Source: Spirochaetaceae bacterium (GTDB taxonomy: Bacteria; Spirochaetota; Spirochaetia; DSM-2461). Taken from it: a stretch of DNA of 28,129 nucleotides. Under the pieces are notes generated by a model. That model did no database searches. It was not told where the DNA came from and worked only from the letters and a program-made list of their open reading frames with translations. Of this stretch, positions 12,663 to 28,129 are shown piece by piece; the first letter of the stretch is position 1; every line of letters begins with the position of its first letter. Made by a program: the position numbers and the translations under genes. Location of the stretch: contig QKAI01000268.1 in assembly GCA_003246505.1 (NCBI GenBank), positions 1-28,129 on the forward strand. The letters are read 5' to 3'.

Positions 12663-12699
12663 TTGTCCGTTTTGTATTAATGTTTTATTATCATACAAT
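12663..12699 (+). promoter_or_regulatory. Promoter TTGTCC-N17-TATTAT of the FadR-type gene, overlapped by operator ATTATCATACAAT (12687-12699)
   Basis: The operator is the reverse complement of ATTGTATGATAAT and overlaps the -10, consistent with autorepression. Confidence 0.7.
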
Positions 12700-12702
12700 G
12701 GG

Positions 12703-13422
12703 GTGGGTGACAGGGTGGCGAAAATCAGACAGAAGACAGTAGTCGAGCAGGTTATGGAGCAGATCAAGGGATTGATCGCTTCGGGCAAATACAAGCCGGG
12801 GGATAAACTGCCCACGGAACATGAACTGGCGGAAAAGTTCGGGATCGGCCGCTCTTCCATCCGGGAGGCTATAAAAATTTTCAATTACCTGGGCGTCCTC
12901 AAATCCAAGGCCGCCAAGGGAACCTTTCTTTCCGACCGGGCGAATATTTCCGCGGAAGCCCTCTCCTGGTCCATTCTCCTGGGAAAGGATGAACAGCAGG
13001 AGCTGATCGAAACCCGGGGGGCCATAGAGCTCTGGAGCATCATCACCCTTACCGGACTCTTTCAGAACAATCCGGTCAAGTGCACCCCCATACTGGATGA
13101 GCTGCAGGTACAGGTCGACCTGATGAAGCAGGGCATCGCCGACGGGGAGCTCGAGAAGCTGGTGGAAGCGGATTACGCCTTCCACAACATCATCGTGAAG
13201 AGCACGGAGAACAGCCTTTTCTACTCCATATACAAAACGCTCAAGTCGTTCATGTACGAAGAGATCATACAGTCCCAGAACGATTATACCGATCCTGGGA
13301 TGATCGTTTCCGAGCACCAGAGCATCATCAATACGATCCGGTCGGGGGATATCAACCAGTCCGTGAAGACATTCAGCTCCCACATAGAGAATATCGAGAA
13401 CCGCCTGAAGATCCGGGCCTAG
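12703..13422 (+). CDS. GntR-family, FadR-subfamily transcriptional regulator (wHTH + FCD)
   Basis: YKPGDKLPTEHELAEKFGIGRSSIREA...GKGTF-like AAKGTF; FCD motifs ADYAFHNII, NSLF and EH..II. The start could be GTG 12703 or GTG 12715. Confidence 0.92.
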   Translation: MGDRVAKIRQKTVVEQVMEQIKGLIASGKYKPGDKLPTEHELAEKFGIGRSSIREAIKIFNYLGVLKSKAAKGTFLSDRANISAEALSWSILLGKDEQQELIETRGAIELWSIITLTGLFQNNPVKCTPILDELQVQVDLMKQGIADGELEKLVEADYAFHNIIVKSTENSLFYSIYKTLKSFMYEEIIQSQNDYTDPGMIVSEHQSIINTIRSGDINQSVKTFSSHIENIENRLKIRA

Positions 13423-13940: not shown

Positions 13941-14834
13941 TCAGATGCCCGTATGCTTCTTAATATAGGCCCGGGCGTTTTTCGCGTAGACGAAGGGATT
14001 GGCCTTGGCCGGATCCTGCTCCGCTTCCACCACCATCCAGCCTTCGTAATTATTCTCATCCAGAATGGCGAAAAGGGAGGGGAAGTCCACACTGCCGTCT
14101 CCGGGGACGGTGAAGACGCCCGCCCTGACCGCATCCAGGAAGGAGGAGTCCTTCGCCTTTACCTCGGCGAAGACATCCTTTCTCATATCCTTGAGATGCA
14201 CATGGCCGACGCGGGAAATATACTTTTTGAGAGCCGCCACGGGATCCTCTTCGGAGAAGGAGAAATGGCCCGAATCGAACAGGAGGTAGACCTTGTCCGG
14301 ATCGGTGTCGTTAAGGAAGCGGTCCACCTCTTCCATGGTCTGGATGCCCGTGCCCATGTGGTGGTGGAAGGCGAGCTTCATCCCCTCACTTTTTGCTATG
14401 GCTCCCAGTTTGTTCAGCCCGTCGCAGACCGCTTTGAATTCATCCTTCGTAAATACGGCCTTACCGGAAAATACGGATTTCTTCAGGTCCCCCTGGCAGG
14501 AGCGGGTCTGCTCGGAGGGGCCGATGACGTCGGCGCCCATGGCCTTGAGGAACATGAGCTGTTCCCTGAAATCCTTCTCCACTTCCCCGTAGGGCTTGCT
14601 GGCCAGGAAGGAGCTGTACCACTGGTTGCAGATCTGAATGCCCCGGACCTCCAGCATCGGCTTCAGCACCGCCGGATCCTTGGGGTATTTGCTTCCCACC
14701 TCCGAACCGGTGTAGCCGGCCAGAGCCATCTCGCTGACGCACTGCTGGAAGGAGTTCTCCTTCCCCAGGTCGGGCATGTCGTCGTTGGTCCATCCTATGG
14801 GAGCCATCGCCAGTTTGACCTTATTCTTATCCAT
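13941..14834 (-). CDS. iolE: Myo-inosose-2 dehydratase
   Basis: APIGWTNDDMPDLG; FHHHMGT; LLFDSGH; HVHLKD; FTVPGDG; WMVVEAEQDP. Confidence 0.95.
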   Translation of the reverse strand: MDKNKVKLAMAPIGWTNDDMPDLGKENSFQQCVSEMALAGYTGSEVGSKYPKDPAVLKPMLEVRGIQICNQWYSSFLASKPYGEVEKDFREQLMFLKAMGADVIGPSEQTRSCQGDLKKSVFSGKAVFTKDEFKAVCDGLNKLGAIAKSEGMKLAFHHHMGTGIQTMEEVDRFLNDTDPDKVYLLFDSGHFSFSEEDPVAALKKYISRVGHVHLKDMRKDVFAEVKAKDSSFLDAVRAGVFTVPGDGSVDFPSLFAILDENNYEGWMVVEAEQDPAKANPFVYAKNARAYIKKHTGI

Positions 14835-14899: not shown

Positions 14900-16834
14900 T
14901 CAGTACTGCCGGGCCCTCTTGAGCTCTTCCTTCTGCTCCGCCGTCTTCTGGACAATGGTTTCGCTCTTCGCCACTTCCGCCTGACCGCAGCGCCAGAACC
15001 CCTTGTACCCGTCGGTCATGGTCTTGGGGAGAACCTTCACGTCTATGACCGTGGAGACGGTCTGCCTGGCCGCATCGGCCAGGGCCGCGCGGAGCTCCTC
15101 TTCGGTCTTGGCGGTGTAGGTCTTGCAGCCGTAGCCCTCGCCGATCTTGGCGAAGTCCACGTAGATCAGGTCCCCGTCCAGTTTGCCCGTTTTGCTGTTC
15201 CTATGGCGGAATTCGGTCCCGAAGGTGCCCTGTCCCCGGTCCATCTGCAGGTTGTTGATGCATCCGAACTCGGCGTTGTCGAAGACGACAAGGTTGATCT
15301 TCTTCCCCTCCTGGATGGAGGTGGCCAGTTCGGAATGGAGCATCATGAAGGATCCGTCCCCAAGATAGGTATACACCTCCCTGTCCGGTTCGGCCAGCTT
15401 GGCCCCCAAGGCGGCGCTGACTTCGTAACCCATGCAGGAGTAGCCGTATTCCATGTGGTAGGAGCGGAGGCTCTTCGCCCGGAATACCCTCTGTAGGTCC
15501 CCGGGGAGGGAACCGGAGGCGCCCACCACGATGGCGTTCTTATCCACAACCTCATCCAGAATTCCCAGAATCCGGGTCTGTGTCAGTTTCGTCCCCAGGG
15601 CTTTGCTGTACTCTTCCAGGGCCGATGTCAGGCCGTCCCGGATTTCGGGCACGAAGCCGGGGCCGGTGTATTCCAGGGAGAAGAGACGGTTAAGCTCCCT
15701 GTCCCATTCCTCCCTGGCCGCTTTGATCTCCGTGGTGTAGGCGGACTTGTAGCCCTCCTTCTTCAGGGTCTCCCGAATGGCGGCAAGGGCCGTCTTCGCA
15801 TCGCAGGTGACCCGCACCGCATCCATCTTGTAGGAGTCGAAGGAGGCCACATTGATGTTGATGAAATCCACGTTCGGGTTCTGGTAAAGCCACTTGGAGG
15901 CGGTGGTGAAGTCGGTGTAGCGGGTCCCTACCCCTATGACCAGGTCGGTCTCCTGTCCCAGGGTATTGGCGGCGAGACAGCCCGTGGTGCCCACGCCCCC
16001 CAGGTTCAGGGGATGGGAGTAGAGGGTGGCGCTCTTGCCCGCCTGGGTTTCGGCGTAGGGGATGTTGAACTCCTCGCAGAATTTGAGCATCTCCTCCGCC
16101 GCTTCGGAGTAGCGCACGCCCCCTCCGCAGATGAGCATGGGCTTTTTCTTGGATTTGATCATCCTTACCGCTTCCCGGACCATGGCGTCGGTGGGGGCGG
16201 TCCTTTCCAGGCGGTGAACCCGCTTCTGGAAGAAATATTCCGGATAGTCGTAGGCCTCGCCCTGCACGTCCTGGGGAAGGCAGACCGCCACGGCCCCCGT
16301 ATTGGCCGGATCGGTGAGGGTCCTCATGGCGCCGATCATGGCGGACATGAGCTGCTCCGGCCGGTTGATCCGGTCCCAGAATTTGCAGACCGGCCGGAAG
16401 GCGTCGTTGGTGGTGAGGGTCAGGTCGTGGAACTGCTCCATCTGCTGCAGAACCGGGTCGGGCTGGCGGGTGGCGTAGGTGTCGCCGGGCAGAAGAAGCA
16501 CGGGGATGCGGTTGGCCGTGGCCGTGGCCGCCGCGGTGACCATGTTGGCCGCGCCGGGGCCGACCGAGGAGGTGCAGGCGTAGATCTGCCTTCTGTGATT
16601 CTGCTTGGCGAATCCCATGGCCGCGGCGGCCATGCCCTGCTCGTTCCGTCCCTGGTGGACGATAAGATCGCCCGGATCCTCTTCCAGGGCCTGTCCCAGG
16701 CCCACCACGTTCCCGTGGCCGAAGATGGTGAAGATACCCTTGACGAATTTGTGCTCTTCCCCGTCGAATTCCAGATACTGCTGGTTCAGAAATTTCACCA
16801 GCGCCTGGGCTACGGTCATTCTTATGGTTTTCAT
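14900..16834 (-). CDS. iolD: 3D-(3,5/4)-trihydroxycyclohexane-1,2-dione acylhydrolase (ThDP-dependent)
   Basis: [10 protein letters not shown]; IFGHGNVVG; RNEQGMA; [11 protein letters not shown]; PDPVLQQ; [11 protein letters not shown]; ThDP motif GDGSFMM...N. Confidence 0.96.
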
Positions 16835-17646
16835 TATTTAACTTCCTTTCCGTGTTTTAATTCGGGCCAGATGACAACATCCGGCTCCTTCAGCCATTCA
16901 TGCTCTTTGACGAAATACCTGGTGGTGGGGAGCCACCGGTCGTTCTCCAGGTGGGGGATCATCCAGATGTAGTACATGGCGTATCCCGCCCCGGCCACCT
17001 GGGAGTGGGTTCGGTCCGGCACGATGAGGCAGGTATCCCCGTTCTTGACGAAATGGGGATCCTCATCGATCAGGGAGACGCCGAAGCCGCAGTCGGGAAA
17101 GTGGCGGTAGTGGTAGATCTCCGGCTGGGGATGATGGTGGGGCGGGTAGCTGGACCATTTCCCCGGGTGGTTGATCACCTCACCCAGAACCATGTTGGAT
17201 TCGGGAGCGATCACCCCGTCGAAGACGGTCCTGACCGTTCTCTTCGCCGTATCGTTGAGGATCCCCCCGCCGAAAATATCGGAGCGGATATCCTCCTGCC
17301 GGTAAAACCGGGGAGCGAACTCCCGGGGATTCTTCTTTTTTTCCACCGCGATTTCCGAGTCCTCCGCCGCAATGATGGTCACGGGAATATTCCGGGGGAC
17401 ATGGAGGACCACGGGGTTTTCCTCAAAGCAGGACCGGCGGACCGCCTCTTCCGTCTTCCCGTCCCATTTGAACTGAACCCGGCCGCCCATGAGGAGCCAG
17501 GCCCTCTCCTTGCCCTCCTGGCAGAGCCAGGTCTCGCCCTTCTTCAGCCGGAGAATTCCGAAATCCAGGAGCATTTCCGAATGGATGCCCTCCTCTTCGG
17601 TGATTACCGTATATCCGGTTTCCCATATCTGATTCTTTATAATCAC
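16834..17646 (-). CDS. iolB: 5-deoxy-glucuronate isomerase (KduI/IolB family)
   Basis: GEV...[16 protein letters not shown]; YAMYYIW; GGAGG RBS with GTG start; TAATG overlap with iolD. Confidence 0.88.
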
Positions 17647-17672: not shown

Positions 17673-17701
17673 ATTATATTGTAGTATTGTCTGATAATCA
17701 A
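17673..17701 (-). promoter_or_regulatory. Promoter TTGATT-N17-TATAAT of iolB-iolD-iolE, with operator ATTGTCTGATAAT (17686-17698) in the spacer/-35
   Basis: Consensus -10 at 17678-17673, -35 at 17701-17696; the operator matches the copies at 12687, 23541, 28058 and 28114. Confidence 0.8.
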
Positions 17702-17739: not shown

Positions 17740-18762
17740 TCAGGTGGACTCCCGGGGGGACAGGTGGGGGGCGATGCTGATCCGGGTCCTGGGCAGCTCC
17801 TCCCCGTTCCTTTTCTTCTGGATCTGATGGATCAGGCGCTGGCAGGAGAGGTGGGCCAGCTCATCCCGGGGCTGGTGAACCGAGGTCAGCCCGGGGTTGC
17901 TGTAACGGGCCAGCTCGCTGTCGTCGTATCCCGCCACGGCGATGTCCCCGGGAATGGCGACCCCCCTGTCCTCCAGGGCCCGCATGGCCCCCAGGGCCAT
18001 GAGATCGTTGCAGCCGAAGAGGGAGTCATACCGGCCGATGCCGTCCCCCAGGCCGGACAGGGCCTCCTTGGCCGATTCGAAGGTGGAGTCGCTGTAGAGC
18101 CGTTCCACCCTGACCCCCGCATCGTCCATCACTTCGCAGAAGCCCTTCTCCCTCAGGCGGAATTCAAGGTGCTCCTGGGTCTTCGCCAGCAGGAGGGGAT
18201 TCCTCCGCCCCTTCTGCAGGAAATGGGAGGCCACCTGCCTTCCCCCCTCCCTGTGGTCGGTGAAGATCACCTCCTGGTTTTTCGTGGCCTCGTCCGGGGG
18301 GTAGTGGAGGAAGACGGAGGGGACCCCATGGAGATTGAGGTACTCGATGCTCTCCTTCTTCAGATGCTCGATGAGAATGAGAAACCCGTCCACCTTGTTG
18401 CGGGATACGAGGCGGATGATGTTGTTGCCCCGGTCTTCCTGATAGGTCTGGTGGGTGATGATGAGGTCCAGATCGGCCTCTTCCAGGGTCTTGCGCAGGC
18501 TGTTGAGGAGCATGCCGTGGTAGACGTTGACGCTGACCATATGGTAGTTCTCCGGCAGGACGATGGCCACCGTACCCACCTGGCTGGTGATCATGCTCCG
18601 GGCGCCCGCATTGAATTCAAAACCCAGGTCACCGGCAATGCGGTTGATTCTCTCCCTCGTCTTGTAAGCCACCAGGGGACTGTTGTTCAGACTCCTTGAT
18701 ACGGTGGCGAAACTGACTCCGGCGATTTCCGCAATGTCCTTAATGGTGACCTGGCTGCCCAT
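17740..18762 (-). CDS. LacI-family repressor, last gene of the importer-iolG operon
   Basis: VTIKDIAEIAGVSFATVSRSLN; hinge region FNAGARSM; IAVAGYDDS...LTSVHQP. Confidence 0.93.
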   Translation of the reverse strand: MGSQVTIKDIAEIAGVSFATVSRSLNNSPLVAYKTRERINRIAGDLGFEFNAGARSMITSQVGTVAIVLPENYHMVSVNVYHGMLLNSLRKTLEEADLDLIITHQTYQEDRGNNIIRLVSRNKVDGFLILIEHLKKESIEYLNLHGVPSVFLHYPPDEATKNQEVIFTDHREGGRQVASHFLQKGRRNPLLLAKTQEHLEFRLREKGFCEVMDDAGVRVERLYSDSTFESAKEALSGLGDGIGRYDSLFGCNDLMALGAMRALEDRGVAIPGDIAVAGYDDSELARYSNPGLTSVHQPRDELAHLSCQRLIHQIQKKRNGEELPRTRISIAPHLSPREST

Positions 18763-18771
18763 CTCTCTCTG

Positions 18772-19785
18772 TCAAAACCTTAACTGTTTGTTTAATTCGA
18801 AGGATTCCTTGCACTTGTAGGCGATCTCCGAAACCCGGGTTCCGTCGTAGACCGTGACCCCGGGCTGCCGTCCTTCCAGGATACAATACACAAATTCCTG
18901 AATCTCGTTAATATAGGAGGAACCGAATCTCTCCAGAAAGTTCTCGCTGCACTCCCGGCGGACGCCCCCGTTGTCCAGGATCTCCACCAGATTCTTCTGG
19001 GGGACCGAGGCGATGCGCAGGATGCCCTTCGTCCCGATGATCTCCGTCTCCACGTTGTATCCGTGGGGGGCGGTCCTCCCCGCGAAGAGGAAGACCATGG
19101 CGTCGTTTCCGAACTGCATGAGGCAGGAGACGTTGTCCCCGTCCTTGTACTGTCCGAATTCGGGATGGGCGTAGCATCCGCCCAGGGCGGTGACGGAGAC
19201 GGGCTCCGAGTTCAGGAACCAGCGGGCCAGATCGATGTCGTGGACCGCCATGTCCAGGAACTGCCCCCCCGAATGGCCGGCGAAGGCGATGGCCCCGTCT
19301 ATGAACTTCTCCGGGTCCTGGCTGTAGGAACGGAAGAGAACGGGCTTCCCGATCTCCCCGGCCATCACCTTTTTATGGGCGTACATGTAGGATTCGTCGA
19401 ACCGGCGCATGAACCCCAGCATGAAGACCCTGTCCCCGTGGGCTTCCACCGCCTTCTCCGCCTCCTTGCACTCCTCCACGGTCACCCCCAGGGGCTTCTC
19501 GGAAAAGACGTGCTTTCCCGCGGCCAGGGCGGCGGCGATCTGCTTCGTGTGCAGGCCGGAGGGGGAGGCGAGGCAGACCGCGTCCAGCTCCTCCAGGGCG
19601 ATCATCTCTTCGAAGCTGGAGAACCGGTGCTTCACCCCCAGCCTGTCCGCGGTTCTGTTGAGCAGATCCCCGTTCAGGTCGCAGAGGGCGGTCAGCTCGG
19701 CATGCATGATCTTGGTGGCGATATTCTCCGCATGGGCCAGGCCCAGCCGGCCCAGTCCCACCGATCCGATCCTGATCGTTCTCAT
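18772..19785 (-). CDS. iolG: Inositol 2-dehydrogenase (Gfo/Idh/MocA family)
   Basis: GLGRLG Rossmann motif; GKHVFSEKP; GFMRRFD; DMAVHDID. True start MRTIRIG at 19785; the ORF-track extension to 20427 is an off-frame reading of the permease gene. Isomer specificity (myo/scyllo/chiro) cannot be read from sequence. Confidence 0.8.
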   Translation of the reverse strand: MRTIRIGSVGLGRLGLAHAENIATKIMHAELTALCDLNGDLLNRTADRLGVKHRFSSFEEMIALEELDAVCLASPSGLHTKQIAAALAAGKHVFSEKPLGVTVEECKEAEKAVEAHGDRVFMLGFMRRFDESYMYAHKKVMAGEIGKPVLFRSYSQDPEKFIDGAIAFAGHSGGQFLDMAVHDIDLARWFLNSEPVSVTALGGCYAHPEFGQYKDGDNVSCLMQFGNDAMVFLFAGRTAPHGYNVETEIIGTKGILRIASVPQKNLVEILDNGGVRRECSENFLERFGSSYINEIQEFVYCILEGRQPGVTVYDGTRVSEIAYKCKESFELNKQLRF

Positions 19786-19790
19786 GGCGA

Positions 19791-20810
19791 TTAACCCTTC
19801 TTGGCGTTCTTGCGCATATCGATGATAACGGCTACCACGATGATCACACCTTCGGTGACCTGCTGCCAGTAGGCGTCGACTCCCAGAAGGGTCAGGCCGT
19901 TTCTCATGACCGAGAGAACCAGGGCCCCCACGAAGGCGCCCCAGATGGTTCCGATTCCCCCGGAATGGCTGGTACCGCCGATGGTGGTGGCGGCGATGGC
20001 GGTCAGCTCGTAACCGGTGGCGGCGCCGGGATGGACCGATCCTACCCGTCCGGCGAAAACGATGGCCGCCAGACCGGCGAGGAGCCCCGAGTAGGCGTAG
20101 ATGGCGATGAGGTTCCGGCCCACGTTGACCCCGGACACCTCCGCCGCCTTGATGTTGCCCCCGATGGCGTAGACGCTCTTGCCGAAGCGGGTCATGTCCA
20201 GGAGGACGTAGCTGACGCCGATCATGAGAAAGTAGATCAGAACGGGGATGGGGAGCCAGCCGAAGAGCTTGCCCCCCAGGACGGTCAGGGAGTCGGTGAG
20301 GGTGCTCACGGGCTTGCCGTCCGAGTAGATCAGGGCCATGCCCCGGGCCACGGTCATCATGCCCAGGGTGGCGATGAAGGCGGGGATGTTGGTTTTGGCT
20401 ATCAGGGCTCCTGAGATACCCCCGCACAGGGCGCCCACGGCCAGGGCGGCCAGGATGGGGACGATGACCGGCATGACGGGCAGGTTGGGAAAGAATTTGC
20501 CCGTGGCGTCGGCGGTCTGGGCCAGGGACGCGGCGATGACGCCGGAGAGGGCCAGAACGGAGCCGACGGAGAGGTCGATTCCCTTGGAAATGATAACGAA
20601 GGTGAGTCCCAGGGCCATGATTCCGAAAATGGAGGTCTGGGTCAGGACGTTAAAAAGGTTGGAGCGGCTCAAAAAGGCCGGCTCCAGAATGCTGATGCCT
20701 ATGATCATGATGAACAGAACGAAGACGATACCGTACTTCTGCAGGATCTGCTGGGTCTTCTGGCTCCGCTCTTTTTTGCCGGGCTGGGCTTTTTCCGCAA
20801 TGGTTGACAT
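19791..20810 (-). CDS. CUT2 ABC transporter permease (RbsC-like), probably for inositol
   Basis: GIDLSVGS; IPAFIATLGMM; RFGKSVYAIGGN..AA.VSG; YELTAIAA..IGGTS..GG.G. Confidence 0.92.
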   Translation of the reverse strand: MSTIAEKAQPGKKERSQKTQQILQKYGIVFVLFIMIIGISILEPAFLSRSNLFNVLTQTSIFGIMALGLTFVIISKGIDLSVGSVLALSGVIAASLAQTADATGKFFPNLPVMPVIVPILAALAVGALCGGISGALIAKTNIPAFIATLGMMTVARGMALIYSDGKPVSTLTDSLTVLGGKLFGWLPIPVLIYFLMIGVSYVLLDMTRFGKSVYAIGGNIKAAEVSGVNVGRNLIAIYAYSGLLAGLAAIVFAGRVGSVHPGAATGYELTAIAATTIGGTSHSGGIGTIWGAFVGALVLSVMRNGLTLLGVDAYWQQVTEGVIIVVAVIIDMRKNAKKG

Positions 20811-20814
20811 TGTT

Positions 20815-22329
20815 TTACTCCTCTCCTACAGCTTTACCCGTGGCGTAGGACATTAATTGTTCTTGGGTAAGATCGGGCGTATTGTCCACGACGGCCGTGA
20901 CACGGCCCTCGTGCATGACCATTATCCGGTCACTCATGCCCATGACTTCCGGCAGTTCCGAGGAAATCATGACGATCGATTTCCCCTCCCCGGCCAGACG
21001 GGTGATCAGCCTGTGAATCTCCGACTTCGCCCCCACGTCGATGCCCCTCGTCGGCTCATCGAGAAAGAGAATGTCCGGATTGGTCATAAGCCACCGGGCG
21101 ACCAGAACCTTCTGCTGGTTTCCTCCGGAGAGGTTCTGCACCTTCTGCATCAGGCTGGGGGTCTTCACCTGAATCTTCTTGACGTAATCGTCGCACTCGC
21201 TCTTAAGCGATTTGTAACGGATCAGGCCCACCCTGTTCAGGTATTTGGGGATATTGGTGATAGCCATGTTCAACCGCACCGAGAGCATGGGGAAGATTCC
21301 CGACATGCGCCGGTCCTCGGTGAGCAGAGCCATATGCCTGGCGATGGCGTCCCGGGGGGAGTTGATGGTCACCTCCTCCCCGTCGATGAGAATCTGGCCG
21401 GAAACCTTGGACCGGATGCCGAAGATCGTCTCTATGACCTCCGTCCTACCCGAACCGATAAGGCCGGCCACTCCCAGGATTTCGCCCCTTCTCACGTTAA
21501 AGGAAACGTCCCTGAAGAGCCGCTGGTGGGTCAGGTTGCGGACTTCCAGTTTCACTTCCCCTATCTCGCAGGGGACCTTGGGGAACATCTCGTCCACGTT
21601 GCGGCCCACCATCATGTTGATGAGCCTGTCCACGATGAGCTTGTCCGTGTCCTCCACGCCGATATAGGTCCCGTCCCGGTAGACGGTGATCCTGTCGGTA
21701 ATCTCATAAACCTCATCCAGCTTATGGGAGATGTATATGATGCTCTTGCCCTGCGCCTTGAGCTTGCGCATGATGGTGAAGAGCTGCTTGACTTCCTTAT
21801 CTGTCAGTGCCGATGTGGGCTCGTCCATGATGATCAGTTTGGAATCGTAGGAGATGGCCTTGGCGATCTCGATCATCTGCATCTTGGCTACGGTCAGCTG
21901 AGCCATCTCTGTCCGGGGATCCTCATCCAGATCGATCTCCTTCAGGACTTCGATGCTCATATCATACATTTTTTTATGGTCCACGAGACCGAACTTGTTC
22001 AAAGGCTCTCTTCCGAGCCAGATATTTTCCATGATAGGTCTGTGAAGTATGGGGCTCAATTCCTGATGTATCATGGAAATGCCCATATGAAGAGCCTGGG
22101 ACGTATCGTAATTCTCCCGAACCTCGCCATCGTACATTATGGTTCCCGATGTGGGACTGTGTACGCCGGCCAGACAGTTCATAAGAGTCGATTTGCCCGC
22201 TCCGTTTTCTCCCATAAGCGCATGGATCTCTCCCTGTTTCACCTTAAGTTCAACACCTTTGAGAGCCTTGACACCGGGGAAGTTCTTTACAATATCCTGC
22301 ATCTGCAGGAGATAGTTTTCCTCAGCCAT
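20815..22329 (-). CDS. CUT2 ABC transporter ATP-binding protein with two NBDs (RbsA/MglA-like)
   Basis: GENGAGKST; IIMDEPT; LSGGNQQK; LFLDEPTRGIDVGAK. Start MAEENYLL at 22329 behind GGAGA; the extension to 22389 crosses hairpins. Confidence 0.94.
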   Translation of the reverse strand: MAEENYLLQMQDIVKNFPGVKALKGVELKVKQGEIHALMGENGAGKSTLMNCLAGVHSPTSGTIMYDGEVRENYDTSQALHMGISMIHQELSPILHRPIMENIWLGREPLNKFGLVDHKKMYDMSIEVLKEIDLDEDPRTEMAQLTVAKMQMIEIAKAISYDSKLIIMDEPTSALTDKEVKQLFTIMRKLKAQGKSIIYISHKLDEVYEITDRITVYRDGTYIGVEDTDKLIVDRLINMMVGRNVDEMFPKVPCEIGEVKLEVRNLTHQRLFRDVSFNVRRGEILGVAGLIGSGRTEVIETIFGIRSKVSGQILIDGEEVTINSPRDAIARHMALLTEDRRMSGIFPMLSVRLNMAITNIPKYLNRVGLIRYKSLKSECDDYVKKIQVKTPSLMQKVQNLSGGNQQKVLVARWLMTNPDILFLDEPTRGIDVGAKSEIHRLITRLAGEGKSIVMISSELPEVMGMSDRIMVMHEGRVTAVVDNTPDLTQEQLMSYATGKAVGEE

Positions 22330-22342
22330 GTTTTCTCCGATA

Positions 22343-22430
22343 ACCGGAGCGGGAGAATTCCCGCTCCGGTGGGTAACGCGGATTCCCATCTATCCTATGG
22401 TTCCCCGGAGGGAACCCCTATGGGGAATCC
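22343..22430 (-). other. Two stem-loops between the SBP and ATPase genes
   Basis: Perfect 12-bp stem ACCGGAGCGGGA/TCCCGCTCCGGT (22343-22370). Nested hairpin 22380-22430 with outer GGATTCCC/GGGAATCC and inner GGTTCCC/GGGAACC arms, giving a C(UCCG)G loop on the mRNA strand. Confidence 0.7.
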
Positions 22431-22438
22431 TTTGATTT

Positions 22439-23389
22439 CTACTGGTAATCGGCCAGATTTTCCGGGGTAATGAGAACGAAGGGGATCCATACGAGGGAAA
22501 CGACCTGCTCGCCCTTGAGAACCTTGTGGATCAGCTCTGCGGAACCCTTGCCCTGACCTACGGCGTCCTGAAGGACCGTAGCCGCCAGAGAGCCGTTTCC
22601 TACGGCGACCTTAGCATCGGGGATGGCGTCAACGCCCATGACGGGGATGTCGGTCCGGCCGGCGGCCTTGAGGGCTTCCACGGCACCCAGGGCCATTTCG
22701 TCGTTATTGGCGCAGATACCCTTAAGGTCGGAGCCGTATGCGGTGAGCCAGTTCTCCGTAATGGTCATGCCCTGGTCTCTCTGCCAGTTGCCGGTTTCCT
22801 TGGCAAGGATCTTGATGCCGGGGAACTTGGCCTTGGCGGTAACTTCGTTACCCTCGGTTCTCTTCAGGGCGCCTTCGTTGTCGAGCTTGCCCATGAGGAT
22901 GGCCACGCCGCCCTTACCGTCAAGAAGCTTGCCCATGTACTCCATCTGCTGGGTACCGGCAATGATCTCCTGGGAACCGACGTAATAGACGTTGGCGGGG
23001 AGTTCCTTCTCCGCATAGGGGTTTCTGTTGACGAAACAGAGGGGAACGTTGGATTCGGCGGCAGCCTTAACAATGGGACCCATGGCGCTCGTGTCAACGG
23101 GAACCACGATAAGGGCATCAATTTTCTGGGCGAGAAGGGTGTTGACCAGATCCTGCTGGCGGATAACGTCCTCCTGCGCGTCCTGAAGAACCAGTTCTAC
23201 ATTGGCGACGCCGGCAAAATACTCCTTGGCCGCATCCATAACGTAGGTCTGAAAGGTGTCGTTAAAGTTGTTACATACGTAACCAACTTTGAAACTGTCC
23301 TTGGCCCCTCCCTTATCCGCCGATCCGTTGGCAAAAGCCACGGTAACGGCCAGAAGGGCCAGCAGTGTTACGAACAATACCTTTTTCAT
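22439..23389 (-). CDS. CUT2 sugar-binding protein (RbsB-like), probably inositol-binding
   Basis: GGAGGT RBS, then MKKVLFVTLLALLAVTVAFANG; DAQED..RQ; IDALIVVPVD; YVGS; NNDEMALGA; GVDA; ATVLQD. Confidence 0.9.
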   Translation of the reverse strand: MKKVLFVTLLALLAVTVAFANGSADKGGAKDSFKVGYVCNNFNDTFQTYVMDAAKEYFAGVANVELVLQDAQEDVIRQQDLVNTLLAQKIDALIVVPVDTSAMGPIVKAAAESNVPLCFVNRNPYAEKELPANVYYVGSQEIIAGTQQMEYMGKLLDGKGGVAILMGKLDNEGALKRTEGNEVTAKAKFPGIKILAKETGNWQRDQGMTITENWLTAYGSDLKGICANNDEMALGAVEALKAAGRTDIPVMGVDAIPDAKVAVGNGSLAATVLQDAVGQGKGSAELIHKVLKGEQVVSLVWIPFVLITPENLADYQ

Positions 23390-23419
23390 AAAATACCTCC
23401 ATAGATTTCGCTTGCATAA

Positions 23420-23435
23420 TTGCAAACGTTTACAA
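23420..23435. promoter_or_regulatory. LacI-type operator TTGCAAACGTTTACAA (proximal)
   Basis: 16-bp near-perfect palindrome with a central CG, at the predicted transcription start. Confidence 0.8.
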
Positions 23436-23540: not shown

Positions 23541-23553
23541 ATTGTCTGATAAA
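23541..23553. promoter_or_regulatory. FadR-type operator ATTGTCTGATAAA
   Basis: The 12-bp core is identical to the iolB and transaldolase copies; it is adjacent to a possible second promoter (CTGACT-N18-TATAAT, 23540-23511). Confidence 0.7.
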
Positions 23554-23959: not shown

Positions 23960-25555
23960 TCATAGGGGCATGTTCCCGTGTTTCTTGGAGGGCCTGTCCT
24001 CCCGCTTGTCCGCGATGATCTCCAGGGACCGGATCAGCTCCTTCCTGGCCGATTCGGGGGAGATCACGTCGTCCACGATTCCCAGGGAGGCGGAGGAGAA
24101 GGGGTTCATGAATTTCCTCTGGTACTCGTGCATCTTGATTTCCTTGATCAGGTCGTGATCCTTGGCGGACTGGATCTCATTCCTGAAGATGATGTTGGCC
24201 GCCCCGGAGGCGCCCATGACGGCGATCTCCGCGATGGGCAGGGTCAGGACCCGGTCGTAGCCCAGGGCCCGGGAGGCCATGCCGATGTAGGCGCCCCCGT
24301 AGGCCTTTCTGAGGACCAGGGCGATCTTGGGCACCGTGGCCTCCGCAATGGCGTAGAGCAGCTTGGCCCCGTGGCGTATGATGCCCCCGTACTCCTGCTC
24401 CGTCCCGGGCATGTAGCCGGGCACGTCCACCAGGGAGATCACCGGGATGGAGAAGGCGTCGCAGAAGCGGACGAACCGGGCCGCCTTGTCCGAGGAGTCC
24501 CGGTCCAGGGCCCCGGCGAAGACCATGGGCTGGTTCCCGATGATCCCCACGGAACGGCCGGCCAAGCGGGCGAAGCCCACCACCATGCTCCGGGCGAAGT
24601 CCCTGTGGACCTCCAGGAAACTCTCCCCGTCGAAGAGAAGGGCGATGATCTCCCTCACGTCGTAGGCCCGGGTGGACTCCCCGGGGATGATCCTGAGGAT
24701 CTCCCCGGTCTCCCTGTTCGGGTCGTCGGTGCACTCCAGCCGGGGAGGGGCCTCCCGGTTGGAGGAGGGCAGGTAGGAGAGCAGTCTCTTCACGAGCCGG
24801 AAGCACTCCTCCTCGCTGGCGCAGTGGAAGTGGACGTTGCCGCTTTTGCTGGCATGGGCCAGGGCCCCGCCCAGGTCCTCGTGGCTAACCTCTTCCCCGG
24901 TCACCGCCTTGATGACCTCCGGCCCGGTGATGTACATATGGCTGGTTTTGTCTATCATGAAGACGAAGTCGGTCAGGGCCGGGGAGTAGGCCGCGCCCCC
25001 CGCGCAGGGCCCCATGATCAGGCTGATCTGGGGGATGACCCCCGAGGCCAGGATGTTCTCCCGGAAAATGCTGCCGTAGCCCTCCAGGGACATGACCCCC
25101 TCCTGGATCCGGGCCCCCCCGGAATCGTTGATCTGGATGAAGGGTTTCCCCGTCTTGAGGGCCAGGCGCTGGGTGGCGGCGATCTTGGAGGCGTGCTGCT
25201 CCCCCAGGGAGCCCCCCAGGACGGTGAAGTCCTGGGAGGAGAGCCAGATCTGCCTCCCCTCGAGGAGGGCGCTGCCCGTGATGACCCCGTCCCCGGATAT
25301 CTTCTTGCTGTCCATGCCGAAGTCGTCGATGCGGCTCAGCTCGTAGGGATGGTTCTCCACGAAGCTGCCCTCGTCGGTGAGGAGCCGGATCCTTTCCCGG
25401 GCCGTATGCTTGCCCTTGGCCTTCTGCCTGGCCTGGCGGTCCTCCCCGCCCCCGGCCAGCATGGCCTTGCGCATCGTCTCAAGAAGCTTCAGGCTCTCCC
25501 TGTGGCTGTAGGGCAGTTCGGGGGACGGGTCAGTTCCCTTTTCTGACGTGCTCAT
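23960..25555 (-). CDS. Acyl-CoA carboxyltransferase subunit (PccB / (methyl)malonyl-CoA decarboxylase alpha / transcarboxylase 12S family)
   Basis: GKHTARERI; GDGVITG; QDFTVLGGSLGE; DSGGARIQEG; GPCAGGAAYSPALTDF; DVPGYMPG; RKAYGGAY; C-terminal KKHGNMPL. GAGGAG RBS lies inside the upstream gene (26-nt overlap). Confidence 0.92.
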   Translation of the reverse strand: MSTSEKGTDPSPELPYSHRESLKLLETMRKAMLAGGGEDRQARQKAKGKHTARERIRLLTDEGSFVENHPYELSRIDDFGMDSKKISGDGVITGSALLEGRQIWLSSQDFTVLGGSLGEQHASKIAATQRLALKTGKPFIQINDSGGARIQEGVMSLEGYGSIFRENILASGVIPQISLIMGPCAGGAAYSPALTDFVFMIDKTSHMYITGPEVIKAVTGEEVSHEDLGGALAHASKSGNVHFHCASEEECFRLVKRLLSYLPSSNREAPPRLECTDDPNRETGEILRIIPGESTRAYDVREIIALLFDGESFLEVHRDFARSMVVGFARLAGRSVGIIGNQPMVFAGALDRDSSDKAARFVRFCDAFSIPVISLVDVPGYMPGTEQEYGGIIRHGAKLLYAIAEATVPKIALVLRKAYGGAYIGMASRALGYDRVLTLPIAEIAVMGASGAANIIFRNEIQSAKDHDLIKEIKMHEYQRKFMNPFSSASLGIVDDVISPESARKELIRSLEIIADKREDRPSKKHGNMPL

Positions 25556-26912
25556 CGAATAACTCCTCGTCCGAGGGCTGTCTGTTCGCGATGGGAGAGG
25601 ACACCCAGGTCGTGTTGATCAGGTGCTTCCAGGTGATGTTCTCGCTGGAAATGTTCCCTCCCCAGGTCCCGCAGCCCAGGGTCAGGGTGGTGGGCATGCC
25701 GTTGGTCCAGGAACCGCTGTTGGCCAGGCAGTGGGGCTGGTTCACCATGACCCGGGACACCTTCACCTGTTCCGCCAGCTGGAGGATCCGCTCCCTCCTG
25801 GTGGTGTGGATGCCGCAGGAGTGGCCCGCCCCGGAATAGGCGGTGATTCTGTTGACCATCCGCACGGCCTCGTTGAAATCGCTCCATTTGTACAGGGCCA
25901 TGACCACGGAGAGCTTCTCCCCGCTGAAGAGGTAGCCCTCTCCCGCGCCGGTCTCCTCCACGAAGAAGAAGCTTTTCCCTTCGGGGAGAGCGATGCCGGC
26001 GATGCCCGCGATCTTCGGGGCCGGCTGGGCCACCACGTCCCGGTTGAGGGTATGCCCGTCGGGCCACAGGGCCTTCTCCAGCTTACCCTTCTCCTCGGCG
26101 CTGCAGAGGTAGCCCCCTTCCGCCTCCAGGGCCTTCACCAGATCCCCGTAGATGGTGTCCTGGGCCAGGCAGGAGTTCTCCGCGGAGCAGCTGGTGGCCA
26201 TGTCGAAGGTCTTGGACCGCTTGATTTTGTCGGCCACCACCTTCATGTCCTGGGTATCGTCCACGATGGTCACCGCGTTGCCCGCGCCCACCCCGTAGGC
26301 GGGGGTGCCGCTGGAGTAGGCCGTCTTCACAAGGCCGGCGCCGCCCGTGGCCAGGATCAGGTCGCACTTGGCCATGATCTCCTGGGAATTCTCCATGGTG
26401 ACCTGGTCCACGTGGATGATCAGGTCCTCCGGGTAGCCCAGCTTCTTCAGGACCCCTCTCATCTTGTTGACCACCATCTCGTTCGTTTTTACGGAGCGGG
26501 GATGGGGGGCCAGGATAATGGCGTTCCTGCCCTTGAGGGCGCTCATGGACTTGAGGACCGGGGTCGCCTCGTTGTTGGTGGTGGGGACCATGGCCCCGAT
26601 GACGCCCACCGGCTTGGCGATCTTGATCAGCCCCAGGGCGGGATCCTCTTCGATGATGCCGGCGGACTTCTTGCCCTTCATGTCGAACCATCCGGCCCTG
26701 ACCTTGTTCATCATCTTGCCGTGCTTGCTCTCGAAGCAGCCCATGCGGGACTCCTCCACGGCCATGGTCGCCAGTTCGGTGACGAAGGGCTCCTGAACGC
26801 ACACCCAGGCGATGGTCTGGCAGATCTCGTCCACCCTCTCCTGTGAGAGGAACTCTATCTCTTTCTGGGCCTTCCGGGCCCGGTCTATCAATCCGTTTAC
26901 GTAATCCGACAT
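25530..26912 (-). CDS. CoA-acylating aldehyde dehydrogenase (AdhE-N/EutE/SauS-like)
   Basis: KPVGVIG..VPTTN; KGRNAII.APHP; LATGG.GLVK.AYSSG.PAYGVGAGN; catalytic Cys in ATSCSAEN; GEKLS; GHSCGIH; TLGCGTWGGN. Confidence 0.92.
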   Translation of the reverse strand: MSDYVNGLIDRARKAQKEIEFLSQERVDEICQTIAWVCVQEPFVTELATMAVEESRMGCFESKHGKMMNKVRAGWFDMKGKKSAGIIEEDPALGLIKIAKPVGVIGAMVPTTNNEATPVLKSMSALKGRNAIILAPHPRSVKTNEMVVNKMRGVLKKLGYPEDLIIHVDQVTMENSQEIMAKCDLILATGGAGLVKTAYSSGTPAYGVGAGNAVTIVDDTQDMKVVADKIKRSKTFDMATSCSAENSCLAQDTIYGDLVKALEAEGGYLCSAEEKGKLEKALWPDGHTLNRDVVAQPAPKIAGIAGIALPEGKSFFFVEETGAGEGYLFSGEKLSVVMALYKWSDFNEAVRMVNRITAYSGAGHSCGIHTTRRERILQLAEQVKVSRVMVNQPHCLANSGSWTNGMPTTLTLGCGTWGGNISSENITWKHLINTTWVSSPIANRQPSDEELFDEHVRKGN

Positions 26913-26933
26913 TTTTCCTATCCTTTCTCTATC

Positions 26934-28013
26934 TTACTTCTTATCCGGGTTGGGCAGCATGAAATCTTTGATGATCCCCAGAAGCTCATGGTAGCCGTCG
27001 ATGAATCCCCTGAGGGTCCGGGCGGTGGCGCCGTAAAAATCGAATTCCTCGGGCTTCATCGTGTAGGCCCCGTAGGCCCTGTTGAAATCGGGGAACTTAT
27101 CCTGCAGCTCCTTGAGAACGGCCGGATCGACGGGCCTGTCTATGGTCACTTCCACGGGAACGTCGCTGCCGTTGAACTTCTTCTGCCAGTCGCAGGGTAT
27201 GGTCTGAACGATATCGTCCCCTATGATCTGGGACCAGTGGAGATGGTTTCTGTAGGCGGCGGAGAGAAGCCGGGTCCGGAAACCCTTTTCCTTATATATT
27301 TTGTAGGCGTTCTTGAAGGCGGCCACTCCGGCCCAGTCCAGGACGCCGGGGGTCGTCACGATGCCCTGCTTGCCCGCCACGACCTTGAGCCAGTCATCCA
27401 GACGTCCGACCATGATCGTGCAGACCGGGGTCATTTTTGAAACGTCCTTTCCTTCCGCCTCCCTTCTCTTCAGGCCCCGTTCCACCGCTTCCGCCACGGC
27501 CACAGCCTGGGGTACGGTGAAACAGACGGTGGCGTTGATGTTGACGCCCCGGTAGGTGGCTTCTTCGAAGGCTTTGATTCCCGCGGCGGTGGTGGGCATT
27601 TTGACCATCATGTTAGGGGCCAGGGTACTGAACTTGACCGCCTGCTCGGCCATGGCGCCGGCGTTGCGGTAGAGCTGGGCATTGGTCTGGATGGATATAC
27701 GGCCCTTGAGTCCCTTCTCCCTGTCAAAGACGGGTTTGAGGATTTCCGCTCCCTTGACGGCCATCTCTTCGATGAGCTTCCAGGCGACTTCCACTTCCCC
27801 CGCTTCGGGCATCTCCGCGATAATTTCCTTGATTCTGCCTTCCCAGAGGGGCATCTCCTTCTTAAGTACGTTGAGAACGATTACCGGATTGGTGGTGGCT
27901 CCCGTGGCGCCGTGGCCTATGGAATATTCCAGTTCCTCCACGGAACAGGAATCATTCCACACCTCCATATTGCATATGGAAACGGATTTCCTAATAGGAC
28001 TCATATCACCCAT
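26934..28013 (-). CDS. Transaldolase-family protein with a non-canonical active-site signature
   Basis: WNDS; GATTNP; Schiff-base Lys in MVKMPTT; INATVCF; MVGRLDDW; AAYRN; AAGGAG RBS. Confidence 0.88.
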   Translation of the reverse strand: MGDMSPIRKSVSICNMEVWNDSCSVEELEYSIGHGATGATTNPVIVLNVLKKEMPLWEGRIKEIIAEMPEAGEVEVAWKLIEEMAVKGAEILKPVFDREKGLKGRISIQTNAQLYRNAGAMAEQAVKFSTLAPNMMVKMPTTAAGIKAFEEATYRGVNINATVCFTVPQAVAVAEAVERGLKRREAEGKDVSKMTPVCTIMVGRLDDWLKVVAGKQGIVTTPGVLDWAGVAAFKNAYKIYKEKGFRTRLLSAAYRNHLHWSQIIGDDIVQTIPCDWQKKFNGSDVPVEVTIDRPVDPAVLKELQDKFPDFNRAYGAYTMKPEEFDFYGATARTLRGFIDGYHELLGIIKDFMLPNPDKK

Positions 28014-28057
28014 ATCTTATCTCCTTAATGATTATCACTGCTTGGACGGATTGTCTA

Positions 28058-28070
28058 ATTGTATGATAAT
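28058..28070. promoter_or_regulatory. FadR-type operator ATTGTATGATAAT upstream of the transaldolase operon
   Basis: Exact reverse complement of the site at the FadR gene's own promoter. Confidence 0.75.
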
Positions 28071-28113
28071 CTGTTATCAAGTATTTGTAAAGAGGAAATT
28101 TTGAAAAAATCAT

Positions 28114-28126
28114 ATTATCAGACAAT
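28114..28126. promoter_or_regulatory. FadR-type operator ATTATCAGACAAT, second copy
   Basis: Exact reverse complement of the iolB site ATTGTCTGATAAT. Confidence 0.75.
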
Positions 28127-28129
28127 ATA

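Follow-up and report, generated by a model that had tools for sequence, protein, structure and literature searches.

A transaldolase-fold protein with a Gln/Met/Ala active site in inositol operons: a candidate for kinase-free cleavage of 2-deoxy-5-keto-D-gluconate

The catabolism of myo-inositol through IolG-E-D-B-C-J-A is a textbook pathway that is used in genome annotation and in reading the metabolism associated with plants, soils, the gut and the sea. The present analysis concerns a gene for a transaldolase-fold protein located at positions 26934–28013 of a 28,129-nucleotide (nt) contig (QKAI01000268.1, analysed over its whole length and referred to as the window), which belongs to a metagenome-assembled genome (MAG) of a Spirochaetaceae bacterium (GCA_003246505.1) and carries genes of inositol degradation. 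The product of this gene and its close homologues are named TAL* here.

The enzymes of known function to which TAL* can be compared are transaldolases (TAL) and fructose-6-phosphate aldolases (FSA). In TalB from Escherichia coli the imine is formed by Lys132, the acid/base work is done by Glu96, Asp17 and a water held by Thr156, and the C1 hydroxyl of the donor is held by Ser176 and Asn154. The catalytic water of FSA is held by Gln59, Thr109 and Tyr131, the last of which is the proton shuttle (PMC13259622), and exchange of these residues between TalB and FSA interconverts the two activities, as stated in passages of the same paper that cite Stellmacher et al. (PMC13259622). For a sulfofructose transaldolase, glyceraldehyde phosphate is the acceptor of a glycerone unit taken from a non-phosphorylated ketose (PMC7491151). 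Replacement of the acid/base Glu is represented in the PDB by laboratory variants (TalB E96Q, 4rz5; TalB E96Q/F178Y, 4rz6; an E-to-Q form of the Neisseria gonorrhoeae enzyme, 7oey). In the literature searched, whose coverage leaves out most subscription journals, no account of a transaldolase in the iol pathway was found.

The reading that is slightly favoured here is that TAL* splits unphosphorylated 2-deoxy-5-keto-D-gluconate (DKG) so that malonate semialdehyde is set free, with glyceraldehyde-3-phosphate as the probable acceptor of the dihydroxyacetone unit, and thus provides a kinase-free ending of the inositol pathway. Taken separately, it is quite probable that malonate semialdehyde arises by cleavage of DKG or of a close analogue and, given this cleavage, transfer of the dihydroxyacetone unit is fairly probable as compared with its release in free form.

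The active site and its conservation

The open reading frame (ORF) that a first-pass annotation of this DNA had taken for a transaldolase is real and lies on the minus strand, with an ATG at 28013 that follows an AAGGAGA ribosome-binding site by 7 nt. All the motifs quoted in that annotation are present in the translation (WNDS, residues 19–22; TTNP, 40–43; ISIQT, 106–110; VKMP, 137–140; NAT, 160–162; TIMVGR, 199–204; AAYRN, 252–256). The gene and the codons of four decisive residues are given below, the latter with their conservation in 80 species-representative genomes from about 11 phyla.

26934..28013, minus strand: TAL* gene, 359 amino acids, first of a three-gene operon (ORF translation, Pfam, AlphaFold and Foldseek)
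27600..27602, minus strand: codon of Lys138 (strand 4), Schiff-base lysine equivalent to TalB Lys132; kept in 80/80
27687..27689, minus strand: codon of Gln109, equivalent to the acid/base Glu96 of TalB and to Gln59 of FSA; Gln in 80/80
27411..27413, minus strand: codon of Met201, equivalent to TalB Phe178 and FSA Tyr131; Met in 80/80
27255..27257, minus strand: codon of Ala253, equivalent to the phosphate-binding Ser226 of TalB; Ala in 80/80

Profile matches and structure prediction place TAL* with confidence in the TAL/FSA superfamily as a protein of transaldolase fold. Pfam PF00923 (TAL_FSA) covers residues 18–286 with 145.5 bits (gathering cut-off 27), and an AlphaFold (AF2) model derived from 38 sequences (predicted local distance difference test, 96.7; predicted template-modelling score, 0.93) has Asp21, Gln109, Lys138 and Met201 at or in the barrel strands in a transaldolase-like arrangement. 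The top structures retrieved with Foldseek are the transaldolases 3r5e and 3clm (template-modelling (TM) score 0.81, 20–22% identity), and the nearest Swiss-Prot models are actinobacterial and cyanobacterial transaldolases of about 370 amino acids (19–24% identity). TAL* scores under every cut-off of the curated NCBIfam TAL/FSA models (PRK03343, the best, 114.7 vs. 367; talAB, 66.9 vs. 396.2; TIGR00876, 76.3 vs. 233.75; TIGR00875 or fsa_talC_mipB, 43.7 vs. 245.95), none of the reviewed and solved proteins compared falls within its family, and the names given to its homologues in databases are only "transaldolase" or "transaldolase family protein". By the defining features tested, which are features of sequence, TAL* is outside the classical transaldolases, the FSA group and the sulfofructose transaldolase clade.

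The equivalence to TalB was established by four routes, namely HMMER against 3r5e, MAFFT, hhalign and the strand positions in the AF2 model. The sequences of TalB and FsaA were taken from NC_000913.3 and aligned with MAFFT together with 163 full-length homologues, and the alignment was repeated with L-INS-i on representatives. HMMER pairs gRiSIQtn and vctimVGRlD of TAL* with gRvSIEvd and vasffVSRvD of 3r5e, respectively, and the comparison of the TAL* family profile with TalB by hhalign has a probability of 98.6. All four routes concur on the following pairs (TalB=TAL*): D17=D21, N35=N42, E96=Q109, K132=K138, N154=N160, T156=T162, S176=T199, F178=M201, R181=R204, S226=A253 and R228=R255. The first-pass annotation had listed by eye Asp17, Asn35, Lys132, Asn154/Thr156, Arg181 and Arg228 of TalB as kept and Glu96, Phe178 and Ser226 as replaced by Gln, Met and Ala, and both lists are borne out by the four alignments, including that based on the predicted model. 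The comparison with TalB and FsaA that it had proposed as a check was run, and neither Glu nor Tyr appeared at the two catalytic positions in any of the four routes; its remark that Gln/Met matches neither TAL (Glu/Phe) nor FSA (Gln/Tyr) proved to apply to the whole family.

The conservation of these residues extends well beyond close relatives. Among the 163 full-length homologues, the most distant of which are about 30% identical, Gln is found in 157, Met in 153 and Ala in 148, and in the 80 species-representative genomes Gln109, Met201 and Ala253 are each invariant together with Trp19, Asn20, Asp21, Ser22, Asn42, Ser107, Lys138, Asn160, Thr199, Arg204, Asp207 and Arg255 (80/80 each). As far as sequence can tell, the Gln/Met/Ala signature is selected and not due to chance, because it is nearly constant in the larger set and invariant in the smaller one.

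TAL* keeps the residues that deal with the dihydroxyacetone end of the donor (Lys138, Asp21, Asn42, Asn160, Thr162 and Thr199) along with two arginines of the anion pocket. The invariance of Thr199 and Asn160, counterparts of the two TalB residues that hold the C1 hydroxyl, argues for a donor with a free hydroxymethyl group and not a phosphorylated one. Of the TalB phosphate site (Arg181/Ser226/Arg228) both arginines are retained, as Arg204 and Arg255, and Ser is changed to Ala253. DKG carries a CH2-COO- tail where fructose-6-phosphate has CHOH-CH2-OPO3 and, judging from its D-gluco configuration, should be D-threo next to the keto group as fructose-6-phosphate is. As to proton transfer, Met201 is, like Phe, no proton donor, and with Gln in place of Glu and Met in place of the Tyr of FSA the transfer would have to run another way; a different proton-transfer chemistry had also been suggested in the first-pass annotation.

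The inositol regulon and the proposed reaction

TAL* lies in a window that also carries iolB, iolD, iolE and iolG, organized in several units with copies of a common 13-nt predicted operator in front of them. These features are listed in the order in which they follow from the TAL* end of the contig.

28114..28126, minus strand: second operator copy upstream of TAL*
28058..28070, plus strand: operator copy ATTGTATGATAAT upstream of TAL*
25530..26912, minus strand: SauS-like CoA-acylating aldehyde dehydrogenase, 460 amino acids, 21 nt downstream of TAL* (AcylSulfactDhSauS 515.9 bits, under the cut-off of 600)
23960..25555, minus strand: MmdA-type acyl-CoA carboxyltransferase, overlapping the dehydrogenase gene by 26 nt (Pfam Carboxyl_trans 599.6 bits)
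23541..23553, plus strand: operator copy upstream of the importer-iolG unit
19791..23425, minus strand: sugar ATP-binding cassette (ABC) importer (binding protein 22439–23425, ATPase 20815–22389, permease 19791–20810)
18772..19785, minus strand: iolG, inositol 2-dehydrogenase, likely start at ATG 19785 (TIGR04380 359.5 bits, above cut-off)
17740..18762, minus strand: LacI-family regulator
17686..17698, plus strand: operator copy upstream of iolB-iolD-iolE
16834..17646, minus strand: iolB, 5-deoxy-glucuronate isomerase, which makes DKG (Pfam KduI/IolB 164.6 bits; TIGR04378 93.4, under cut-off)
14900..16834, minus strand: iolD (TIGR04377 939 bits, above cut-off)
13941..14834, minus strand: iolE (TIGR04379 409.8 bits, above cut-off)
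12703..13422, plus strand: GntR/FadR-type regulator gene
12687..12699, minus strand: operator copy upstream of the GntR/FadR-type regulator gene

The operator (ATTGTMTGATAAW) has five matches in the window against 0.09 expected. Since it is shared by the upstream regions of TAL*, iolBDE, the importer-iolG unit and the regulator gene, the TAL* operon is regarded as part of the inositol regulon, and the GntR/FadR-type protein is a likely repressor and a candidate to bind this predicted site. The ORF listed for iolG (18772–20427, 551 amino acids) overlaps the permease gene and has its IolG domain from residue 218 onwards; translation from the ATG at 19785, which has a ribosome-binding site, leads to a product of normal size, about 337 amino acids.

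The two genes that follow TAL* in its operon may account for the fate of malonate semialdehyde. The SauS-like protein, whose best-matching model is that of the acylating sulfoacetaldehyde dehydrogenase, is a candidate enzyme for its conversion to malonyl-CoA, and the MmdA-type protein, which attains 727 bits with TIGR01117 (mmdA) and stays under the cut-off of 998.8, is a candidate malonyl-CoA carboxyltransferase or decarboxylase subunit. Neither a biotin carrier nor a membrane decarboxylase subunit for the MmdA-like protein occurs in the window, and OadB has no match in the MAG. Elsewhere in the MAG there are two ORFs with biotinyl domains (156 and 469 amino acids; C406:4348-4563 and C165:1486-1701), which could be partners of the MmdA-like protein in a transcarboxylase rather than a sodium pump.

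The canonical enzymes for the later steps are missing from this set. None of iolC, iolJ and iolA occurs in the window. In the MAG, which is 81% complete and in 552 contigs, nothing scores above the cut-off for IolC (best 113.8 bits vs. 300) or IolA (best 24.6 bits vs. 448.5), and the DUF2090 aldolase and DhaK have no match; for IolJ the genome searches cover the DUF2090 type, the class II type not being distinguished from glycolytic fructose-bisphosphate aldolase. The closest complete relative (G251, TAL* locus L013), a single chromosome of 5.6 Mb, has a TAL* that is 84% identical and the same operon order; no IolC was found in it at E <= 1e-40, and DUF2090, IolA and DhaK likewise were not found at the thresholds searched. 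The same genome encodes an FSA-type protein of 225 amino acids whose two diagnostic residues are Gln and Tyr (L098; G251:C1:43242-43841).

From these residues and this setting we infer a substrate, products, an acceptor and a proton route for TAL*. Imported myo-inositol would be converted to DKG by IolG, IolE, IolD and IolB, and TAL*, as an enzyme of class I (lysine Schiff-base), would be adapted to a carboxylated ketose without a phosphate group. Lys138 would form its imine at C5 of DKG and the C3–C4 bond would be cleaved, so that malonate semialdehyde would leave from a pocket that still holds Arg204 and Arg255. The bound dihydroxyacetone unit would most likely be transferred to glyceraldehyde-3-phosphate to give fructose-6-phosphate, as in sulfofructose transaldolase, and with such a transfer the step would need neither IolC nor IolJ. 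In this bacterium the SauS-like dehydrogenase would then turn malonate semialdehyde into malonyl-CoA, from which the MmdA-like carboxyltransferase would remove the carboxyl group to yield acetyl-CoA; in most other phyla IolA would handle malonate semialdehyde instead. For the protons, two routes can be envisaged, a water acting through the Gln109-Thr162 site and Asp21, or assistance by the β-carboxylate of the substrate itself, and the latter would explain a selection against an anionic Glu.

The same bond could be broken by an FSA-like DKG aldolase that sets free malonate semialdehyde and dihydroxyacetone, the latter to be taken up by a kinase or dehydrogenase encoded elsewhere. Gln at the position of Glu96 is the state found in FSA, where Gln59 builds the water site with Thr109 and Tyr131 (PMC13259622), and all the contextual evidence for DKG applies equally to such an enzyme; in addition, DhaK was found in 28 of 50 TAL* genomes. 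However, the position of the FSA shuttle Tyr131 is Met in 80/80, DhaK is missing from the other 22 carriers as well as from the MAG and G251, and no gene for dihydroxyacetone kinase, glycerol kinase or glycerol dehydrogenase is among the recurrent neighbours of TAL* in 80 loci. Aldolytic release is therefore considered rather unlikely. Transfer of the dihydroxyacetone unit is preferred to its release because Met201 cannot protonate the enamine, because 22/50 carriers lack DhaK and because sulfofructose transaldolase offers a precedent.

Occurrence and neighbourhoods in other genomes

Confirmed relatives of TAL* number at least 589 in a pattern scan of GTDB species genomes that was built on a 12-sequence alignment, and an exhaustive search of representatives gave 321 clusters (50% identity) at E <= 1e-30. 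According to record titles and the tree, the carriers belong to Spirochaetota, Chloroflexota, Acidobacteriota, Verrucomicrobiota, Actinomycetota, Pseudomonadota, Thermodesulfobacteriota, Myxococcota, Bacteroidota, Fusobacteriota and Deinococcota. The TAL* clade has a support of 100/97, and the type of partner (IolA, SauS-like or IolC-aldolase) is scattered within it. DNA nearly identical to the stretch 23960–28129 of the window is present in hydrothermal-vent, seawater, marine and marine-sediment metagenome runs, on account of which the source organism is taken to be marine; the matches shown in this search were in DNA runs and none was in an RNA run.

The neighbourhoods of TAL* were compared by clustering the ORFs of 80 loci, annotating the recurrent clusters and correcting the counts with tblastn, except for IolB and IolE, whose counts are cluster-based as the proteins of the window are too divergent for tblastn. 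Loci in which TAL* has 5 kb or more of sequence on either side, 41 in number, are referred to as well-flanked. At least two of iolB/D/E/G are present in 28 of the 41, of which 23 have no IolC in the locus, and IolA or a SauS-like enzyme is present in 20 of the 41. An acylating aldehyde dehydrogenase of either type occurs in 35 of all 80 loci, some of them without iol genes; the SauS-like gene directly adjoins TAL* in 9–10/80 (median gap 18 nt), and its pairing with MmdA recurs in Spirochaetota and Anaerolineae. In the 80 loci the median distance to TAL* is 42 nt for IolB and 75 nt for IolD, mainly on the same strand, and a common gene order is LacI-iolB-TAL*-iolD-iolA-iolE-iolG. At the genome level, 38 of the 50 TAL* carriers have no IolC above cut-off. 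An even sample of 251 Spirochaetota includes 12 IolD-positive genomes, which divide into eight with IolC only, two with TAL* only, none with both and two with neither; as these genomes are related, the counts are given without a test statistic.

This context backs the suggestion of the first-pass annotation that the donor is a carboxylated ketose, considering the operator shared with iol genes, the adjacency to iolB and iolD in many phyla and the lack of IolC in most carriers. Its other proposal, a hydrolytic aldolase that replaces only IolJ, is poorly supported for this organism, and its interpretation as a whole is thus partly supported. In such a scheme DKG-6-phosphate made by IolC would be split by TAL* to dihydroxyacetone phosphate (DHAP) and malonate semialdehyde. 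Two loci, L020 and L038, do have IolC beside TAL* and no obvious class II aldolase, and the scheme is conceivable for these, for L031 and for five Proteobacteria. It needs IolC, however, and this enzyme is not found above cut-off in the MAG or in most of the carriers, nor in G251 at the threshold given; the residues for a free C1 hydroxyl (Asn160 and Thr199) are invariant, and we know of no characterised enzyme of the TAL/FSA fold that takes a 1-phosphorylated donor. Moreover, where IolC occurs an aldolase domain is usually present too, either fused to it or as DeoC/DUF2090 in L031. Replacement of IolJ alone is hence very improbable.

An ordinary pentose-phosphate transaldolase, acting on fructose-6-phosphate and sedoheptulose-7-phosphate and travelling with the iol genes to balance sugar-phosphate pools, would agree with the clear transaldolase fold and with nearest structures that are real transaldolases. 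In three carrier genomes (G252, G254 and G271) TAL* is the sole TAL_FSA gene, and the MAG has besides it only a still more divergent paralogue on contig C300. On the other hand, the acid/base Glu is lost in every member, a change otherwise seen in laboratory variants (4rz5, 7oey), the scores are far under all the NCBIfam transaldolase cut-offs, the phosphate-binding Ser226 is gone, and TAL* genes are tightly set between iolB and iolD and, in the window, preceded by the iol operator. Other TAL_FSA genes coexist with it, namely a conventional fusion of TAL with phosphoglucose isomerase (TAL-PGI) in G255 and the small FSA-type protein of G251, which is why TAL* is not taken for a housekeeping enzyme. 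On the grounds of the lost Glu, the sub-cut-off scores and these coexisting genes a housekeeping transaldolase was rejected, and the chances of this explanation are judged to be minimal.

The paralogue on contig C300 (L004:1255-2304, minus strand) is a second protein of TAL_FSA fold with 349 amino acids, 27% identical to TAL* (61 bits). It is more divergent, with Asn/Asn/Gln/Lys/Ile/Thr/Ile/Ile/Gly/Arg at ten key positions, and its gene lies directly downstream of one for a tripartite ATP-independent periplasmic (TRAP) DctM transporter. Perhaps it, too, acts on an acidic sugar without the help of a kinase.

A more general role, in which TAL* would be a kinase-free cleavage module for other keto-sugars or keto-acids and inositol only one of several uses, draws support from the loci in which iol genes are scarce; the donor in the operon studied here could then be some other product of the enzymes upstream. 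None of iolB/D/E/G is present in 11 of the 41 well-flanked loci. Short-chain or Zn-dependent dehydrogenases, ABC importers, sugar-isomerase-like triosephosphate isomerase (TIM) barrels and an acylating aldehyde dehydrogenase are carried instead by L026, L032, L033, L050, L053 and L061, and the Gln-type paralogue of the MAG adjoins a TRAP transporter. Against this stands the operator common to the TAL* operon, iolBDE and the importer-iolG unit of the window; furthermore, DKG is, to our knowledge, the only ketose that the enzymes of iolBDE and iolG deliver. As an account of the gene studied here, a different donor looks improbable.

Conserved TAL* operons without iolB/D/E were noted in Anaerolineae (L026, L032, L033, L051), Desulfobacterota (L050, L053, L061) and Spirochaetota (L023, L024). 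One type comprises GntR, a creatininase-family protein, an IolM-like Zn dehydrogenase, an ABC importer, a xylose-isomerase-like TIM barrel, TAL* and the SauS-like dehydrogenase, some with DUF6282; the other has a Liv-type ABC importer, two short-chain dehydrogenases/reductases (SDRs) and TAL*.

Several observations weigh against the favoured reading of TAL*. The acceptor is proposed purely by inference, from the analogy with sulfofructose transaldolase; the acid/base groups of both characterised classes are missing from the sequence, so full activity should not be assumed; and the absences in the MAG count for little, given its completeness. IolC is above cut-off in 12 of the 50 TAL* genomes and lies within 10 kb of TAL* in 8 of the 80 loci, five of which (L042, L052, L069, L085 and L092) are proteobacterial IolC-aldolase fusions. 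These fusions beside TAL*, in alpha- and betaproteobacterial MAGs (NF047869, 958 bits), make it appear that two routes for the same step coexist in those clusters. In L031, from Ardenticatenaceae, IolC and a separate DeoC/DUF2090 aldolase complete the canonical set, and TAL* is present in addition. About one third of the well-flanked loci have fewer than two iol genes; an acylating aldehyde dehydrogenase is seen there again, along with importers, SDR or Zn-dependent dehydrogenases and a xylose-isomerase-like TIM barrel. It is therefore probable that the family is also fed by other pathways, and DKG may be neither its sole nor its ancestral donor. All eight TAL* proteins near IolC keep the full signature. 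As a separate observation, the next genes in L031 (L031:11086-13299) encode a pterin-binding protein and a URO-D-family protein, a pair reminiscent of a methyltransferase module, which might serve to demethylate pinitol or other O-methyl-inositols.

A wider and more tentative proposal, considered less likely than not, is that TAL* represents the best-sampled branch of a wide radiation of long "Gln-type" TAL-fold enzymes that cleave non-phosphorylated keto-sugars or keto-acids without a kinase by a third catalytic solution that uses neither the Glu of TAL nor the Tyr of FSA and in which either the carboxylate of the donor or a water held by Gln, Thr and Asp takes part. If this were the case, the textbook inositol pathway would end in another way in many organisms, from at least 11 phyla, and in anaerobes this ending would feed malonyl-CoA to a biotin-dependent carboxyltransferase. 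If hundreds of species had such a stand-in for kinase and aldolase, pathway predictions would change, as such genomes are now scored as incomplete, and the well-studied TAL/FSA fold, a workhorse of biocatalysis in which a natural enzyme for carboxylated donors or acceptors would be useful, would gain a third catalytic type. From the anaerobic variant in the window it would seem that inositol can be led to malonyl-CoA and acetyl-CoA, with a possible gain from the energy of decarboxylation.

Comparison with described systems

In overall architecture TAL* resembles most the long transaldolases of the actinobacterial/Neisseria type (3r5e from Corynebacterium glutamicum, 3clm from N. gonorrhoeae; PRK03343, TIGR00876), which have the same fold and length class (TM 0.80–0.86) and share with it an insertion after strand 6, the Schiff-base Lys, the Asp, Asn and Thr of the active site and both arginines. 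It differs from them in sequence (19–24% identity), in the changes of Glu to Gln, Phe to Met and Ser to Ala, and in its context, which is inositol catabolism and not the pentose-phosphate pathway. The catalytic architecture of E. coli TalB aligns with that of TAL* residue by residue, but TAL* naturally carries a change that in TalB is known only as the laboratory variant E96Q (4rz5). E. coli FsaA shares with TAL* the Gln at the Glu96/Gln59 position, and Thr162 corresponds to Thr109 of the FSA water triad; in contrast, TAL* has Met for Tyr131 and is 359 amino acids long, compared with 220 for FsaA.

The sulfofructose transaldolase (SftT/BmSF-TAL, 8bc3) is the closest in its proposed logic, as its substrate is an anionic, non-phosphorylated analogue of fructose and an anionic C3 aldehyde is released. 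Sulfoacetaldehyde and malonate semialdehyde are isosteres, and the dehydrogenase that partners TAL*, like that of the sulfo-TAL pathway, would handle such an isosteric aldehyde. The two transaldolases are nevertheless no close relatives, BmSF-TAL being a short TAL whose structure 8bc3 matches TAL* over residues 100–174 only (E 3e-7).

The Bacillus-type pair of IolC (DKG kinase) and IolJ (DKG-6-phosphate aldolase) would occupy the same place in the pathway as that proposed for TAL*, after IolB and before the enzyme acting on malonate semialdehyde, and coexists with it in some genomes. The proteins are unrelated to TAL*. IolC/IolJ use ATP and yield DHAP, whereas the reaction proposed for TAL* would do without a dedicated kinase and would end in a hexose phosphate.

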